The notes under the pieces: model-generated
Database searches by the model: none
Told to the model about the DNA's origin: nothing
What the model saw: the letters and a program-made list of their open reading frames with translations, nothing else
Assembly: GCA_005191425.1 (NCBI GenBank)
Contig: SUPR01000025.1
Location: 6,207-38,206 of the forward strand
DNA from: Candidatus Helarchaeota ASGARD archaeon Hel_GB_B
GTDB taxonomy: Archaea > Asgardarchaeota > Lokiarchaeia > Helarchaeales > HEL-GB-B
DNA: 32,000 nucleotides
Direction of reading: 5' to 3'
Translations under genes and position numbers: made by a program
Part shown: positions 7,254-31,422 of the stretch, piece by piece
Layout of the letters: each line of letters opens with the position of its first letter
How positions within the stretch are numbered: the stretch's first letter is position 1

Positions 7254-9245
<1,992 letters not shown>

Positions 9246-11910: not shown

Positions 11911-13089
11911 ATGAATTTTCCAATAAAAAAATATAAAGAAGGAAAAACATTTTTCTATGCACCCGATTTAGACAAATATGGAATTCCTCAGAATGCTCCA
12001 GCATTTTATAATCCTAATATGAAATTTAATAGAGATTGTTCACTAATAGCAATTCAAACATATCAAAAATTACTTAATAAAAATATCATAATATGCGACC
12101 CATTATCTGGAGTAGGAATAAGAGGACTAAGATATGTTAATGAACTCAATGGGGTAAACTTTGTTTTTGTTAATGATTATAATAAAAATGCTTATGAATT
12201 AATTTTGCGGAATATTAAATTATTAAAAAATAACCTCATAATTAAAGCTTTTAATAAAGAAGCAAATAATTTTCTTAATGATTTTAGTATTTTACCTAAA
12301 GTTTTGGATATCATCGATATAGACCCATTTGGATCACCTACTTGTTTTATTGATACTGCTGTAAGGGCTCTAAAGAAACGTGGTTTAATTATGTTAACCG
12401 CCACAGATATGAGGATTCTTTGTGGGATACAACCCAAAGTTTGTGCTAGAAAATATGGCGGATACTCACTCAAAACTAATTATTGTCATGAAATTGCAAT
12501 ACGATTACTTTTAGGTTGTTTGATGAAAATTGCGAATCGGTTCAATTTTTATATCCATCCCCTGATGTCTTTTACTCAAATTCATTATATTCGGACTATT
12601 GTTGAGTTAATTAAAAATAAAAAAGAAATAAGTAAAAATTTGAAGGATTTTGGATATATATCTCATTGTTTCAAATGTAATGGTAGGTTAATTTTTAAAG
12701 AATTAGATATTAAAATACCGAAAACATGTCCTTTTTGTGGTAGTAAATTAATAAGTATAGCTGGTCCCTTATGGTTGGGTAAAATTCAAGATAAAAACTT
12801 TTTATCAAATTCATTAGAAATTATTAAAAATATTGAACTAACTAACAAAAAGAAAATCGAGTTGTTCTTTTCTACTCTATTAGCAGAATCTGAAATGCCT
12901 CCTACTTATTATAACATCCATAAAATATGTAAAAATATCAAAATTTCTGCCCCTAAACTTGAATCAATAATTAACAAATTACATGAATCAAATTTTATAG
13001 CAAGCAGGACTCATTTTTGCCCTATTTGTATAAAAACTGATGCTAATATAAATTTAATAATAAAAACAATAAAAGACTTAAAAACTTAG
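11911..13089 (+). CDS. trm1: tRNA (guanine-26-N2)-dimethyltransferase Trm1
   Basis: FYNPNMKFNRD, DPLSGVGIRGLRY, DIDPFGSP, TATD, Zn motifs CFKC/CPFCG, AGPLWLG, SRTHF. Confidence 0.96.
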   Translation: MNFPIKKYKEGKTFFYAPDLDKYGIPQNAPAFYNPNMKFNRDCSLIAIQTYQKLLNKNIIICDPLSGVGIRGLRYVNELNGVNFVFVNDYNKNAYELILRNIKLLKNNLIIKAFNKEANNFLNDFSILPKVLDIIDIDPFGSPTCFIDTAVRALKKRGLIMLTATDMRILCGIQPKVCARKYGGYSLKTNYCHEIAIRLLLGCLMKIANRFNFYIHPLMSFTQIHYIRTIVELIKNKKEISKNLKDFGYISHCFKCNGRLIFKELDIKIPKTCPFCGSKLISIAGPLWLGKIQDKNFLSNSLEIIKNIELTNKKKIELFFSTLLAESEMPPTYYNIHKICKNIKISAPKLESIINKLHESNFIASRTHFCPICIKTDANINLIIKTIKDLKT

Positions 13090-13092
13090 TTA

Positions 13093-14124
13093 TTATTTTT
13101 TCACCCATTCGATGTCCTGCCCTAATTTGTCCAAAAAGCTGGCAAGAATTGTCCTCGGGATATTCATTTTTTTAGAAATTTCTTTTAATGAATGATTACC
13201 ATTACAATAATGTATAATTTCTGAAAATAATTTATTGAGGTCTGGGTCTATATCTATCGATTTTAAAAGGTTAAAGTTCGTTATTACTGGATATATCCTA
13301 ACTGGTCGTACCCAACCCTCTTTCATACAAAATGCCACAATCTCTTTTACTTTGTCCAAATCTACATTTAATTTTAAATGGATCCCATTTATACTGATTT
13401 TTCCCTCCTTCATTAAAGTTAATATATCTATTCCTTTTTTACCAAAATTATTCATTATAGTTTCATATACATAAGAAATTTTCTCAAAAATATTTTTTCC
13501 TTCCTCTGTTAAGATATAGATATCTGTATTTTTAATCATCTCACTTAATTGCCCTCCTATTTGAATTATCCCAAGTTCTTGAAGATATGCAAGTTTCTCA
13601 ATTACCGATTCTATTGGTTCATTTAAACGGTTAGAAATTTCTTTTACATCTGATGTATTGTCTATAGCAACTAATAGATTTAACGTAGACCGATCAATGA
13701 AATCCTCTGATAAAATAGGCACGTCATTCATTGATATGAATTCTGGAGCAAATTTTTTTACAATTATTTCTTTATATGGATCAAAAATTACTGTATCTGC
13801 AGCTGGATCTATCTCATAAATCTCTTCAAATAATTTAATTGTCTCTCTTAATATTCTTCTTATATTTGGAGTGTCTGTTTTCGCTAAAAGTAAACCTATG
13901 ATTTCCTTCCCGGGTTCTATCAATATCTTAAAATCTCCCCTATCTACAGCTCTGATTATTTTATTTGAATTTGAATTGGGCATTATAAAATTTAAAAAGG
14001 ATGAGATCGCGGATAAGAAACCCGATACCATCTGCTCATCTAACGAAGAACCTATGAAACTATGGTGAAGTATACATGTCCCAACATTCTTTATTACAAA
14101 AAATATTTCAAATATTCTAGCCAT
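13093..14124 (-). CDS. Longin-domain plus winged-helix protein, NPRL2/Npr2-like (Asgard eukaryotic signature protein)
   Basis: N-terminal longin-type motif (FFVIKNVGTCILHHSF...DEQMVSGFLSAISSF...GDFKILIE), followed by three HTH-like segments. Confidence 0.75.
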   Translation of the reverse strand: MARIFEIFFVIKNVGTCILHHSFIGSSLDEQMVSGFLSAISSFLNFIMPNSNSNKIIRAVDRGDFKILIEPGKEIIGLLLAKTDTPNIRRILRETIKLFEEIYEIDPAADTVIFDPYKEIIVKKFAPEFISMNDVPILSEDFIDRSTLNLLVAIDNTSDVKEISNRLNEPIESVIEKLAYLQELGIIQIGGQLSEMIKNTDIYILTEEGKNIFEKISYVYETIMNNFGKKGIDILTLMKEGKISINGIHLKLNVDLDKVKEIVAFCMKEGWVRPVRIYPVITNFNLLKSIDIDPDLNKLFSEIIHYCNGNHSLKEISKKMNIPRTILASFLDKLGQDIEWVKK

Positions 14125-14429: not shown

Positions 14430-14906
14430 ATGACTAAAGTTCAAATACAAACTTCTAAAGGAAATATAAATTTAAAACTCTTTGACAATGATGCTCCACT
14501 TACTGTTGCTAGTTTTTTATTTTTAATTAAGAATGGTTTTTATGACGGACTAACTTTTCACAGAGTGATTAAAAATTTTATGATTCAAGGAGGATGCCCC
14601 CTTGGAACTGGAACTGGTGGGCCTCTTAGTAAAGGAATTAAAGAATTCCCTTATAAGGGTAAAATGGTAAAATATCCTTTTAAAGATGAATTTCATAATG
14701 GTCATCTTTTTGATAAACCTGGAATATTAGCAATGGCTAATGCCGGACCTAACACAAATGGTAGTCAATTTTTTATTACTCATGTGGTTACCGATTGGCT
14801 TAATAATAAACACACAATTTTTGGAGAAGTCGTAGGGCCCGAAGATCAAAGTATCGTCAATGCTATTGAAAAAGGAGATAAAATTAATAAAATCATTGTC
14901 TTGTAA
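14430..14906 (+). CDS. Cyclophilin-type peptidyl-prolyl cis-trans isomerase
   Basis: [47 protein letters not shown]. Confidence 0.97.
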
Positions 14907-21028: not shown

Positions 21029-22373
21029 TCATTTGCTTTTATATTTTAATTTTAATTCCTCTATATATGTCGTTATTTGAGGCAAAACCTTAAGTCGTGG
21101 ATAAAAATATTCATTGATCAATTTAACTATTTGGTATCTTGATTCTGCAATTAAATTATTCCATTCATTGTCTGAAATATCACATATACCAAGCACATCA
21201 TCTCTTAATTTCATTAAAGCATCAACAATTTTTTCTTCTTCAGGGCCTTCACAGACTTTAATTACATTTTTTATGAGAGTATAAATTTGATTTGATACTA
21301 CTTTTCTATCGATAGGTGATTTTGGTAATCTTGCATCATTAATGGCATTAAGAAGACTCCAAACTTGGTATAATGCAGATGCTGGTTCATCAAACAATTC
21401 CCTAGTAAATAATGCTTCCTTATGTGCACCTTTAAGACGGAAAATATTATACAAACGTTTTGCTACTTTGCCATAATTTTGGTTCTCTTCTTCTAAATAG
21501 TGTAAAACCTGCTTTTCTAATGCATTTAAATAATCATCAAGTTTTTTAGGTGTAAGATTTTCTTTTAATTTTGTAAATAGCGGAATTGAACTAGCTTCCA
21601 AATAGACTTCTTGAAAATAAGGGTCTATCTGCCCATCAAGTGGAATAATTTCTCCTTTAGGGCTTTCCCGGGTAATATCTAACATATTACTAACATTTAT
21701 TACTCTATTTCTATCTGGCTCTACAATTAACCAATCTAACTTGCACCAACCAGGATCTAATTCTCCATATTCCCAATTTAACTTACGATCTTTATTTTTG
21801 TCTTGGACTATCATAAACCCTTGTTGTACTTCATCAGCATTCCCAGAATTTGGTGTGCCTGCTTTTAACAATCTTCCATTTTTTTTTTTGAAATTTGATT
21901 TAAAAGTCCCCCATTTTGCTTCAATTAATTGGTAAACCGGAGAATATAATTTGTCCAAAGCTTTTTTTTCTAATTATTTGACCACTTATTTTACATGCTT
22001 CCTCTTTTGTGGGGGCAATTATGTTTACTCTTTCAAAATAATCTAAATCTCCTGGAAACCTCTGAACTTTACCTTGAGCTGCAGAACCGGATAAACTTAT
22101 TGCCGTTTCTATTCCCTCGCTATTTGGAATTCCTACTATTTCTGCTATTTTCCTAAACCGTTCTAATTCCTTTGAATCGAAATCAATTAATTGGAACTCA
22201 TGCCCATAAATACCTTGAGATTCATCTATAATAAGATCTTCTGGAGTTTCTTCTGCAGATTTTATATCTTTAAGCCATTTTATCGCTTTATCTTCATTTA
22301 TTTCAACTCCTAGACGTTTAGCAGCTTCAATTATCTCCTTTATTTCATCTATATTTATATCTCCATTTTTCAT
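21029..22373 (-). pseudogene. Uncharacterised Pol-beta-superfamily nucleotidyltransferase split into two ORFs by a +1 frameshift (pseudogene, phase-variable gene or sequencing error)
   Basis: ORFs 21921-22373 and 21029-21958 overlap. Removing one A from the A8 run (T8 at 21962-21969) fuses them into 447 aa. Contains a GS-x11-DLD motif. Confidence 0.65.
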
Positions 22374-26731: not shown

Positions 26732-28261
26732 ATGGCAGAAAAATTTGAAAATTTAATACTAACTTTAAATAGATTAACTGGTAAAAAATATCCCGAAATT
26801 GAAAAAATAATCCAAAATGCTATTAATGAGTTAGATATCCCGTTATTAACTGATTTCTTTCATTTATTAGATGACTTTAAAAATATATTATATAATATGG
26901 ACCAGGATATTAAAAATAAAAATAAAAATAAAAAGTATTTAATGTTATTCCAGAAATTTAATGATTTACAATATTTAGACCACTTAATGGTAATTCATAA
27001 CTCTGGGATTGCCATTTATAATTATTCTTTTACAGAAAAATATTTCGACCCACAACTGATTTCTGGCTTTTTAACAGCAATTCTCTCTTTTCAAGAATCT
27101 ACAATGATAAAAAGTGAGATTTCTTCAAAAGTAATTTCACAGTCAAGTTTCGAGCTATTATATGCCAATTTTATTATCTTATTGAATTCCAGTAAATACT
27201 TTAAAGTCGCCTTAATAATGGAAAAAAAACCTTCCAATTCAATCCGTAAATCACTTTTTGAATTCATTTCAAGATTTCAAAATAAATATGATAAATTAAT
27301 TCAAGATTATTCCGGAAATGTAGAAGTATTTAAAGATGTCGATAAATTAGTCGAGGAAATTTTTAGTGTATCATTGGGTTGGCCCCATAGAATAAAGTCT
27401 GAAATAAATATCAAAAAGATTGAAAAAAATTTGACCAACTTACAAAACCTTATTTTAAATGTCATTAATGATTTGCAAGAAGAAACCGAGTATTTTTTAA
27501 TTTCAAATATTATTGAAATAATTAAAAAACAAAAAAATATTCCTGAAGATAAAATTTTCAGCGCCTTTTGCGAACTCGACCAAAAAGGTCTATTTTTAAA
27601 ATTCCCACCAGAAAAAATGGTCGAAACTTTAGAAAAAGAAAAGGAAAAAATTAGTATAAAAGAAATTGATGCATCTTTAGACGATAAAATAGAAATCATC
27701 TCATCAATTGAAGGCGTACCAAAAAAACTTATTGAAAAAATAAATAATCATTTAGTTAAAACTAGCTATATCTATCAGAAAATGATAATTGAAAATATCA
27801 TTTCAATCCCAAAAAAGGAGAAAAATAAATTTTTAAAAGATAAATATAATAAATGGACTGAACTAGAAAAACAAAAAAAGTTTATTGCTAACAAATTAGC
27901 TAAATACGAAAAAAATAATAATAACAACATAAATATTTCAGAAAAAATAAACTATTTAATCGAATATAAAGAATTATGTGAAGAATTAGGTTATGAAGAG
28001 GAGGCTGATATAATTTCTGAAAATATTTACGAATCTTTAAACTTTCTAAAAAATTCAAATTTAAATGAATATAAAAATTTTTTAAACCAATTCAATAAAT
28101 TGTTATCAAAATATATTGAAAATGCCGAATTTGATATCATAAATAAAAAAGTTCTAAATGGGGCATTTAATTATAATAAAGCAGTAAGAATTGCTAAACA
28201 AATCGGTAACATCGAAATGGCTAATACGCTCTCGAAAATCGTCTTAGGAATTGAAAAATAA
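26732..28261 (+). CDS. Asgard-type longin-domain protein with central winged helix and C-terminal helical region
   Basis: aa ~82-210 carry HLMVIHNSGIAIYNYSF...DPQLISGFLTAILSF, then a wHTH-like segment (FLISNII...KIFSAFCELDQKGLF) and a helical, TPR-like C-terminus. Confidence 0.7.
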   Translation: MAEKFENLILTLNRLTGKKYPEIEKIIQNAINELDIPLLTDFFHLLDDFKNILYNMDQDIKNKNKNKKYLMLFQKFNDLQYLDHLMVIHNSGIAIYNYSFTEKYFDPQLISGFLTAILSFQESTMIKSEISSKVISQSSFELLYANFIILLNSSKYFKVALIMEKKPSNSIRKSLFEFISRFQNKYDKLIQDYSGNVEVFKDVDKLVEEIFSVSLGWPHRIKSEINIKKIEKNLTNLQNLILNVINDLQEETEYFLISNIIEIIKKQKNIPEDKIFSAFCELDQKGLFLKFPPEKMVETLEKEKEKISIKEIDASLDDKIEIISSIEGVPKKLIEKINNHLVKTSYIYQKMIIENIISIPKKEKNKFLKDKYNKWTELEKQKKFIANKLAKYEKNNNNNINISEKINYLIEYKELCEELGYEEEADIISENIYESLNFLKNSNLNEYKNFLNQFNKLLSKYIENAEFDIINKKVLNGAFNYNKAVRIAKQIGNIEMANTLSKIVLGIEK

Positions 28262-28339: not shown

Positions 28340-29599
28340 ATGGGTGAAGTTGAAAAAATTTGGCATCTAAATTTTAATCTTTATGAGCCAAAAGATTCAC
28401 ATCCTAATTGGGCTAAATTAAACGCTGAAGCAACTGAACTTGCAACCAAAATTTTAAAAAGAATTACATTACAAAAGAATCCATTACAAAGGACTATATT
28501 ACAAAAGCGAAAAATCTTGGCACTAATTAGGACAATAAAAAACCTCCTTTTAAATAAATGGCGTGTCAATAAAGGTAATTATAATTTTATTCCGCTTTTT
28601 TATATCTGGACAATGACTAATAATTGCAATTTTGTTTGCGATTATTGTAGTAACCACCGAGGTGGTAAATACCCTTTATTATTTAAAGATGGTCTGCGGG
28701 ACGACCTTACTACGGAACAAGGAAAACAATTGATTAATATCATGAAAGAAACATCTACAATATATTATTGCGGAGGTGAACCAACTTTAAGAAAAGACTT
28801 ACCTGAACTACTTGCCTATTCGACTAAAAAAAATATGTTTAATATGATCAATACTAATGGGTCTCTAATTGGAGATTTACTTCTTAAACCTGAATATAAA
28901 AATTTTTTACTACAGATGGACGTCATTATTATTTCTCTTGATAGCTTATCAATTTCTAAATTGTCTCAAATTTACCACGTCAAAAAAAACCTTGCTAAAA
29001 AGGTAATAAGAAATATTCTTACATTGAGAATTTTACAAAATTATGTTCCCTTCAAATTAGTGGCCAATACGGTTATAACAAAAGATACTATTGATGACTG
29101 CTATTCTATTTTAGATTGGTGCAACGATCTAAATATTGTTTTTTCTCCAGTTTCAGCAAATATTGGTAATATGCCTGATTACGAACTACTTAATGCCCCA
29201 CTATATAAAAATTTGGTATCTAAAATCCTAAAACGCGCCGACCAAGGATTCCCAATGATCGCATCACGAAAAATGCTTGAAAAATTACTTTTAGCTAAAG
29301 ATATTCATTGCTATCCCACTGTTTTTGATCATGTAGATTACAATGGTGATTTATTTTGGCCATGTAAAGCATATTTTAAATGTAAAAAAATAAACGTTTT
29401 AAAATATAAGAATATCAAACAAGTCCATAAAATTGCTAGTAAAATGATAAATCCCCGAAATTTTCATGGTGATGGTGCTAATCAATGTCAAGGGCATTGC
29501 AGCTGGATGCAAAATTGTGTTACAGATACCTACGGAAGAGCTTTAATTGAAGGTTTTTTCGATAGTGGAATATTTAAGGAAATAATAAATTTAATTTAA
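28340..29599 (+). CDS. Radical SAM protein with C-terminal Twitch/SPASM-like cysteines, function unknown
   Basis: CNFVCDYC, GGEP, INTNG, ISLD; C-terminal CYP...GDLFWPC and CQGHC...C. Confidence 0.9.
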   Translation: MGEVEKIWHLNFNLYEPKDSHPNWAKLNAEATELATKILKRITLQKNPLQRTILQKRKILALIRTIKNLLLNKWRVNKGNYNFIPLFYIWTMTNNCNFVCDYCSNHRGGKYPLLFKDGLRDDLTTEQGKQLINIMKETSTIYYCGGEPTLRKDLPELLAYSTKKNMFNMINTNGSLIGDLLLKPEYKNFLLQMDVIIISLDSLSISKLSQIYHVKKNLAKKVIRNILTLRILQNYVPFKLVANTVITKDTIDDCYSILDWCNDLNIVFSPVSANIGNMPDYELLNAPLYKNLVSKILKRADQGFPMIASRKMLEKLLLAKDIHCYPTVFDHVDYNGDLFWPCKAYFKCKKINVLKYKNIKQVHKIASKMINPRNFHGDGANQCQGHCSWMQNCVTDTYGRALIEGFFDSGIFKEIINLI

Positions 29600-30064: not shown

Positions 30065-30604
30065 ATGGAAAATGAAACAAATACTATGCGTTATAAAATG
30101 GTATTATTTGGCAACGAGAAAGTGGGAAAAACAAGTTTAGTTGAAAGATTTATCAATAATCGGTTTATTGAAGATTATCTTTATAATTTGGGGTATAACA
30201 TTTATGAAAAAATCATTAGTTACCAAAAATATTTAATTTCGTTAATGATCTATGATATTGGTGGACAAGAAAAATTCGATGTCGTAAGAAAAATATATGC
30301 GAGGGGCGCAGATACCGCATTTATAATTTATGATATAACAAATAAAAAGTCATTCAATAATCTAAAAAAATGGCGCGATGATTTGTATAAATATGCGGGT
30401 ATTATTCCTTTTATGATAATCGGAAATAAAATTGATTTAGAAAATAAAAGAAAAGTATCCAAACAAGAATTAATCAATACGAGTAAAGAGTTAAATGCAA
30501 TAGGTTATTTTGAAACTTCTGCAAAAACTGGCGAATATGTCGATATGGCGTTCAATCAGTTAGCGATTGAAACTTTAAAAACACATCTGTCAAAAAACGC
30601 TTAA
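30065..30604 (+). CDS. Small GTPase, Ras superfamily (Rab-like, Asgard type)
   Basis: G1 GNEKVGKTS, G3 DIGGQ, G4 NKID, G5 ETSAK. No C-terminal cysteine motif. Confidence 0.95.
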   Translation: MENETNTMRYKMVLFGNEKVGKTSLVERFINNRFIEDYLYNLGYNIYEKIISYQKYLISLMIYDIGGQEKFDVVRKIYARGADTAFIIYDITNKKSFNNLKKWRDDLYKYAGIIPFMIIGNKIDLENKRKVSKQELINTSKELNAIGYFETSAKTGEYVDMAFNQLAIETLKTHLSKNA

Positions 30605-30642: not shown

Positions 30643-31422
30643 ATGACTGAGAAAATATTTAAGTTTAGGCCAGAAACTCCTGAGCAAAGGATTGTTTGGG
30701 AAGTTATATTCTTAATTATAGTTATTATAGCAATAGGTCTTTTTGGAAGCTTATCATCTATAAATGTAATATATACCATAATTATAACAATTATATTTTC
30801 TTGTCAAATAATTTTAAGATTTATATTTTTTAATCAGAAAGGCGACTGGATATTTTTCTTTATAGGCGTCTTAGCTGGTGGCGGTAATGATTTATCGTCA
30901 ATGCTTAATGGTGTCTATCAATATACCTCTATTACTATTGTCCCGTTCCTTTCAGGTTTATTACCACTTTGGATGATATTTTTTTGGGGTCAAGTTTTTT
31001 TGGTTTTTAGAAAAATTTTCAACCTGAAATGGTTCAAGGGTGATGAATTTAAAAAAGATGGTAAATTATTAGGAGGATGGGTCAATTACAAATTAATTTT
31101 TGATATTATTATATTAGTGATTTTGAGAATTGCTATTTATAGAACATATTATTTAGAATGGTGGATACCTGCTCTTATTTATGGCTTAATTATTGGTATT
31201 AGATTTCTAATTTTTAGACCAAAAAAGAACCAGATATTTATAATAATAATTCTTCCATATGCATTTATTTTTGAAGGTCTAATGGTATCTTTTGGGCTAT
31301 ATATTTATATTAACCCATCATTTTTGGGCATGCCTATTTGGCTGTTTTTATGGTGGATTTTTCTCGTCCCATGTCTTTTAAAAGAAATTTTTGATCGAAT
31401 CGAATATCTGATTAATAAATAA
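30643..31422 (+). CDS. Integral membrane protein with an internal duplication (DUF2878/lycopene-cyclase-domain-like, tentative)
   Basis: Two similar halves ending GVYQY...LLPLWMIFFWG and GLYIY...GMPIWLFLWW; about 8 TM segments. Confidence 0.6.
   Translation: MTEKIFKFRPETPEQRIVWEVIFLIIVIIAIGLFGSLSSINVIYTIIITIIFSCQIILRFIFFNQKGDWIFFFIGVLAGGGNDLSSMLNGVYQYTSITIVPFLSGLLPLWMIFFWGQVFLVFRKIFNLKWFKGDEFKKDGKLLGGWVNYKLIFDIIILVILRIAIYRTYYLEWWIPALIYGLIIGIRFLIFRPKKNQIFIIIILPYAFIFEGLMVSFGLYIYINPSFLGMPIWLFLWWIFLVPCLLKEIFDRIEYLINK

Follow-up and report, generated by a model that had tools for sequence, protein, structure and literature searches.

The subject of this analysis is a protein of 343 residues encoded on the minus strand at positions 13093..14124 of a 32,000-nucleotide stretch of DNA (the window) from contig SUPR01000025.1 of the Asgard archaeon Candidatus Helarchaeota Hel_GB_B; the gene has 343 codons from its ATG start, with the stop codon at 13093-13095. 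The protein is best explained as a cytoplasmic protein of the NPRL2/NPRL3 (Npr2/Npr3) superfamily, known from GATOR1 (SEACIT), the GTPase-activating protein (GAP) that switches off Rag GTPases upstream of TORC1. That it is a genuine homologue within this superfamily we regard as very probable, and profile, Pfam and fold comparisons all support a homology that is full-length and collinear.

An exhaustive HMMER search with a family profile of 12 sequences gave 714 relatives at expectation values (E) up to 1e-3, of which 150 were built into an alignment (A3) that served both as a profile and as the input for an AlphaFold2 (AF2) model. This model (predicted local distance difference test, pLDDT, 90.1; predicted template-modelling score, pTM, 0.77) consists of a longin fold, a linker, and three winged helices; a first model, from 12 sequences, was unusable (pLDDT 58). 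The longin domain (residues 1-133; 13726..14124, on the minus strand like all parts of the gene) has the topology β-β-α-β-β-β-α-α over residues ~3-129, with β1 at 4-11, β2 at 17-22, α1 at 30-47, β3-5 at 59-81, α2 at 86-102, and α3 at 117-129. It leads into a linker (134-144; 13693..13725) with the motif DVPI at 134-137, with D134 and P136 unchanged throughout the close family, and then into winged helix 1 (145-216; 13477..13692), winged helix 2 (217-283; 13276..13476), and winged helix 3 (284-343; 13096..13275). When the longin domain is aligned rigidly to solved longins (over residues 1-129, the winged helices not being covered), Sec22b is the best match, with Z 14.4 and a root-mean-square deviation (rmsd) of 2.6 Å over 121 residues, followed by Fuzzy, TRAPP, and the σ-adaptins. 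The longin-type N-terminus and the three helix-turn-helix (HTH)-like segments that a preliminary description had read from the sequence are thus both present in the model, at the boundaries given above. Column counts over the 150 relatives show G15, F23, D29, K/R58, D61, D64, K66, E70, and G72 as the residues of the longin domain conserved in the family.

Searched against the sequences of the PDB, the A3 profile retrieves human NPRL2 (6ces_N) with E 1.7e-8 in one unbroken stretch, profile positions 137-316 matching NPRL2 169-352, and yeast Npr2 with E 1.4e-4. The sole match to outrank NPRL2 is a designed HTH repeat protein; the best natural generic winged-HTH (wHTH) protein follows at E 1.3e-3, and ordinary wHTH regulators cover shorter stretches. 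Generic regulators of this kind are thus at least five orders of magnitude worse than NPRL2, and the match is therefore beyond chance. With the query mapped onto the profile, D134-V135-P136-I137 corresponds to NPRL2 D173-V174-P175-V176, I154-D155 to I200-D201, T200..T206 (TDIYILT) to S242..T248 (SNVYCPT), I262..V280 ('...RIYPV') to the 'LIQFGLMKNLIRRLQKYPV' block ('...QKYPV'), and G309/H311/S312 to the 'TGCHSY' block. Winged helix 1 thereby falls on NPRL2 ~190-250, the start of its middle region (TINI in GATOR1), and winged helix 2 on ~255-335, including the '...KYPV' block. This is the same collinear register, with DVPI on DVPV, that the preliminary description had proposed; its N-terminal block, RIFEIFF on RIECIFF, lies outside the profile match and is covered by the full-length fold alignment given below, not residue by residue.

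Among the Pfam families, HTH_NPRL3 (PF24064) alone passes its threshold on the 343-residue protein, matching residues 293-337 within winged helix 3 with 29.5 bits (gathering cut-off 27.2); this winged helix is also the single locus in the genome at which the family scores above cut-off. The family stands for the HTH at the C-terminal end of NPRL3, a GATOR1 subunit, and is a protein-interaction domain. Structural searches of the model with Foldseek point to the same proteins: the top 13 matches in the PDB are all GATOR1/SEACIT chains (NPRL2, NPRL3, Npr2, Npr3; E 3e-10 to 6e-6), and the top 11 in the Swiss-Prot part of AFDB are all NPRL2 or NPRL3, with residues 2-343 of the query placed on human NPRL2 5-380 at E 2.2e-12 and the alignments showing 12-15% identity. 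In the AFDB clusters archaeal relatives lead and eukaryotic NPRL2/3 come next. The top full-length fold matches are therefore NPRL2, NPRL3, Npr2, and Npr3 only, and neither by profile nor by Pfam nor by fold are the matches confined to generic longins and wHTH domains of the MarR/ArsR type. A protein-atlas search gave unnamed Asgard clusters only, the relatives including Thorarchaeota clusters of ~400 residues.

Several observations weigh against this assignment. Pfam NPR2 (PF06218) and NPR3 (PF03666) do not match the 343-residue protein, and 2 of 58 relatives reach E 1.2e-4 with NPR2. Against the sequences of the PDB, the single sequence and the 12-sequence profile retrieve no significant NPRL2, giving a weak match to the C-terminal part of NPRL3 (E 0.87); a longin-only profile (A4) also retrieves no NPRL2 from the PDB, and in Pfam it yields weak Fuz_longin and Sybindin matches only. 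The longin domain taken alone is generic, and in the rigid alignment generic longins outrank NPRL2; what is specific to NPRL thus comes from the linker, from the three winged helices, and from the overall architecture. Global template-modelling (TM) scores to NPRL2/3 are 0.26-0.30, with rmsd values of 16-19 Å (PDB) and 17-22 Å (Swiss-Prot AFDB), so that the relative orientations of the domains differ or are uncertain. The generic longin domain, the low TM-scores, the missing retrieval by single sequence and small profile, and the abundance of winged helices in archaea would all be expected if the likeness were convergent or merely modular, a generic longin joined to widespread winged helices, the complete architecture not being specifically inherited from a shared ancestor. 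We hold this to be highly improbable and already disfavored: the profile alignment runs unbroken over 180 residues, taking in the linker plus more than two of the winged helices, with the order of the motifs kept; the Pfam match to HTH_NPRL3 is separate from it and above cut-off; and all top full-length fold matches in two libraries are NPRL2/3.

The arginine finger of NPRL2 is Arg78, which sits on a loop of its longin domain (PMC8534245). This loop, between β4 and β5, reads KKYSRN in NPRL2; in the hairpin that matches it here, FKILIEP-GKE-IIGLLLAK, it is a three-residue turn, G72-K73-E74, without arginine, and among 148 relatives positions 72-74 hold no conserved arginine, the register to the NPRL2 loop being taken from secondary structure and not from a residue-level superposition. 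The profile alignment, the model, and the column counts agree with the preliminary description that the arginine-finger hairpin of NPRL2 is absent, and with the loop reduced to G-K-E the 343-residue protein is unlikely to be a GAP of the arginine-finger kind. In GAP longins a GP motif occupies the loop preceding β2 (PMC12290439). At this place, just before β2, where NPRL2 has the motif, a glycine is conserved here (G15, kept in 136 of 143 relatives), whereas the next residue is threonine, giving Gly-Thr in place of the Gly-Pro of NPRL2; proline occurs at +2/+3 in a minority. Conserved E70 and G72 flank the G72-K73-E74 turn and position 58 is conserved as basic; judged from longin topology rather than from a measured distance, E70, G72, and the basic residue would share with G15 one end of the sheet. 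Asgard longins of the FLCN/SMCR8 type, which are likewise related to eukaryotic longin GAP complexes and share the conserved glycine before β2, retain the arginine together with the GP motif (PMC12290439) and lack the three winged helices, whereas no arginine is found in the loop here. The missing arginine could thus reflect loss, or a non-catalytic state like that of NPRL3, as well as the ancestral scaffold predating GAP activity that the preliminary description proposed.

A homodimer of the 343-residue protein is predicted with a score of 0.43, against 0.00 for the best control. Of proteins whose solved structures are pairs of one chain, 20 of 30 reach this mark, and of those with single-chain structures 1 of 23 does, a calibration that is rough since it was applied with an alignment of our own making. 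At least 90% of the contacts are common to the three runs, which give the partner a pLDDT of at least 78. In the predicted interface the DVPI linker of one copy (129-143) packs on winged helix 1 of the other (148-190), and most residues invariant in the close family are found there; in NPRL2 this region corresponds to the TINI domain, through which DEPDC5 is bound in GATOR1 (PMC8534245). The model passes narrowly, and thus supports binding but does not show it; speaking against it, the pairing of the linker with the wing strand is intramolecular in the monomer model, so that the dimer may be a swap artefact.

In eukaryotes NPRL2 and NPRL3 act with other GATOR1 subunits on Rag GTPases, and the genome was searched for both kinds of partner. 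The assembly has 3.54 Mb and is 93.7% complete; within it, Iml1/DEPDC5 (PF12257) has no match at E up to 1, the Pfam NPR2 and NPR3 families have no match anywhere, and a second full-length paralogue of the same architecture was not found. Candidate GTPases are numerous: Gtr1/RagA (PF04670) is above cut-off at 26 loci, of which 12 reach E 3e-19 or better, mostly in open reading frames (ORFs) of ~305-425 residues, which puts the Rag/Gtr-type GTPases at 12 or more; ORFs for small GTPases number ~53 in total. The genome also encodes ~36-40 longin-family proteins of this type.

The best contextual evidence that the architecture of a longin domain with three winged helices works with small GTPases comes from a sister paralogue of identical architecture (347 residues; 26% identity over all 343 residues, E 1e-39), which occurs in two genomes of the neighboring family and was not found in the genus of the window. 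On four contigs of related Helarchaeales, the gene of this paralogue is followed on the same strand, with gaps of 12-52 nucleotides, by two genes for Ras-family small GTPases, the first divergent and Ras-like (~176 residues, 32-38 bits) and the second canonical and Ras/Rab-like (160-184 bits); the three-gene operon lies at L036:5518-7684, L031:1501-3605, and L030:1501-3934. The window's own genome yielded no such operon, and the two operon GTPases have many Ras-like matches there but, since all of these are at or below 50% identity, no clear orthologue. Other features of gene context count against an association with GTPases: no GTPase gene adjoins the gene of the 343-residue protein or three of its orthologues, which have housekeeping neighbors, with trm1 conserved and convergent; and across the window's genome 6 of 35 longin-family genes have a GTPase gene within 3 kb, compared with 9% of the other genes, a weak enrichment. 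The neighborhood of a Lokiarchaeia relative of 288 residues also contains no GTPase gene.

The sister operon bears on two further explanations. In the first, the 343-residue protein would be a transcription regulator, with the longin domain as a sensor or dimerization module and winged helices that bind DNA, as in archaeal regulators of the TrmB, MarR, and ArsR type; its likeness to NPRL2/3 would then reflect the shared ancestry of parts rather than a common function. This is suggested by near-threshold Pfam matches (TrmB, at winged helix 2, with 24.8 bits at a cut-off of 25.6, MarR with 15.4 at 24.6, and also HTH_45 and HTH_24), by the name 'ArsR family transcriptional regulator' that was automatically given to the nearest AFDB cluster representative, and by the mildly basic winged helices 2 and 3, with isoelectric points (pI) of 9.2 and 8.1. 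We nevertheless consider it unlikely, as no DNA-binding family is above cut-off and HTH_NPRL3 alone passes; the protein as a whole is acidic (pI 5.5), and so is winged helix 1 (pI 4.5), which is buried in the predicted dimer interface; NPRL2 stands about five orders of magnitude above every DNA-binding wHTH protein of the PDB, over a longer stretch; and the sister paralogue is encoded in an operon with GTPases and not beside a regulated target.

In the second, the protein would be a free-standing form of a cytoplasmic adaptor module carried by giant Asgard surface or membrane proteins, coupling to such a protein or to some other partner that is not a GTPase. The module of longin domain and winged helix does form the C-terminus of proteins of 1200-2100 residues in a public library and of three proteins of 1514-1696 residues in the window's genome (G000:C134:12321-17411, L022; G000:C106:26849-31849, L023; and G000:C132:2054-6598); the remaining ~1250 residues of L022 and L023 have no Pfam match. 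This explanation, too, we find improbable, given that no gene for a large membrane protein adjoins the gene studied here or its orthologues and that it is GTPase genes that accompany the closest full-length paralogue. A further multidomain relative, of 723 residues (G000:C160:19223-21394, L024), has the longin module together with a PCI domain (53.5 bits) and, at its C-terminus, a winged helix that resembles those of UFL1/DDRGK1 (E3_UFM1_ligase, 42 bits); an AFDB cluster with the same layout exists.

Compared with the GATOR1 subunits, the 343-residue protein is close to human NPRL2, the catalytic subunit, in length (343 against 380 residues) and in its succession of longin domain, DVP[IV] linker, and three winged-helix-like modules; beyond the two differences in the longin loops, it differs in having no Iml1/DEPDC5 gene in its genome. 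It has the same architecture as NPRL3, the non-catalytic partner of NPRL2, with whose HTH family its winged helix 3 is matched; NPRL3, however, has 569 residues with large inserts, and no heterodimer partner of the same architecture was found for the archaeal protein in its genome. NPRL3 is also not known to have an arginine finger. The text of PMC12290439 is inconsistent on this point; it gives NPRL3 as lacking the GP motif. A platform of the longin/roadblock kind together with a winged helix and a small GTPase is also seen in MglB/roadblock systems and in the actinobacterial conservon (roadblock CvnB, DUF742 winged-helix CvnC, GTPase CvnD), where the platform is of the roadblock and not of the longin subtype and the parts are separate proteins; DUF742 gives weak matches in 6 of 12 close relatives (best E 2.5e-4), and no significant sequence relation to these systems emerged. 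MglB is a GAP that has no arginine finger.

For the function, we favor, as somewhat the likelier outcome, an NPRL2/NPRL3 homologue that acts with GTPases as a scaffold or regulator and lacks an arginine finger. The 343-residue protein would work with small GTPases, for which the conserved end of the longin sheet, formed by the β1-β2 loop (G15), the β4-β5 turn (E70-x-G72), and by topology residue 58, may serve as the platform; the winged helices would be modules for protein-protein contacts and self-association and not readers of DNA. More likely than an arginine-finger GAP is a non-catalytic, NPRL3-like platform or scaffold, or else an MglB-style GAP or a regulator resembling a guanine-nucleotide exchange factor. 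It would act on one or several of the archaeon's many Rag/Gtr-like or Ras/Rab-like GTPases, perhaps as a homodimer. A more specific version, in which a single-copy, homodimeric protein would resemble NPRL2/NPRL3 before their duplication, with the DVP linker and winged helix 1 as the ancestral surface of self-association, regulation of small GTPases without an arginine finger, and the arginine-finger GAP mechanism of GATOR1 as a later addition, is rather unlikely.

Comparison of orthologues, with saturation at synonymous sites (pS at least 0.75) and a pN of 0.10-0.18, shows that the ORF at 13093-14124 is a real gene and subject to purifying selection. Its closest relatives are unannotated proteins from metagenome-assembled genomes of Candidatus Helarchaeota and Lokiarchaeota, with 69-83% identity, followed by a second group at ~40-43%; apart from one relative named MarR family regulator, a name that would suit the regulator explanation, all are publicly annotated as hypothetical proteins only. 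The orthogroup (E <1e-150) is confined to the window's own order, where it is present in 5 of 5 genomes, and the longin family overall in 318 of 400 genomes of the phylum (E up to 1e-10). The sequencing runs listed for this DNA are metagenomes from hydrothermal vents and marine sediment, none of them of RNA. The gene is monocistronic: it stands alone between trm1 (11911-13089, plus strand), with which it is convergent, and a cyclophilin gene (14430-14906, plus strand), from which it is divergent, and it has no operon partner, the sole conserved neighbor being the convergent trm1.

The window is AT-rich (GC 0.23-0.36), and its genes include those of archaeal housekeeping (gyrB/gyrA, trm1, cyclophilin, a THEP1-type NTPase, dnaJ/dnaK/grpE, RNase HII, TFB). 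The gyrB ORF as listed (7404-9245, plus strand) has a GTG start and an N-terminus that looks short, and at 21029-22373 (minus strand) two overlapping ORFs of 309 and 150 residues have no Pfam match. The window contains a second protein of the longin family, of 509 residues, at 26732-28261 (plus strand): the A3 profile (6-323) matches its residues 77-407 with E 1.6e-30, its longin core is 35% identical to that of the 343-residue protein (BLAST), and no Pfam family matches it. Downstream of its gene lie a radical-SAM gene (28340-29599, plus strand), then the gene of a Ras/Rab-like small GTPase of 179 residues (30065-30604, plus strand; Pfam Ras, 151.9 bits), and next after this the gene of a DUF2878 protein of 259 residues (30643-31422).

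Asgard NPRL2-like proteins that combine a longin domain with an NPRL2-specific C-terminus have been described by Liu et al. (2020/21; bioRxiv 10.1101/2020.10.19.343400), who also reported many fusions of NPRL2-like longin domains, and 'NPRL2-like longin domain' is an asCOG category in later work (PMC9834061). The protein described here has the same combination in an Asgard host, while its orthogroup is restricted to the window's order. The preliminary description thus overrated the novelty of this architecture, and the present account is a refinement and not a discovery, since such proteins were already published. What is new is modest: the Helarchaeales orthogroup, the collinearity of motifs through the TINI-equivalent region, the missing arginine loop, the single copy with its homodimer model, and the GTPase operon of the sister paralogue.

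The origin of the GATOR1 machinery is a question in eukaryogenesis. With a compact and confidently predicted fold, and with the motifs of NPRL2 but neither the catalytic arginine nor DEPDC5, the 343-residue protein is a convenient subject for the role that the NPRL scaffold may have had before GATOR1, and the operon of its sister paralogue with two small GTPases offers a defined set of partners.

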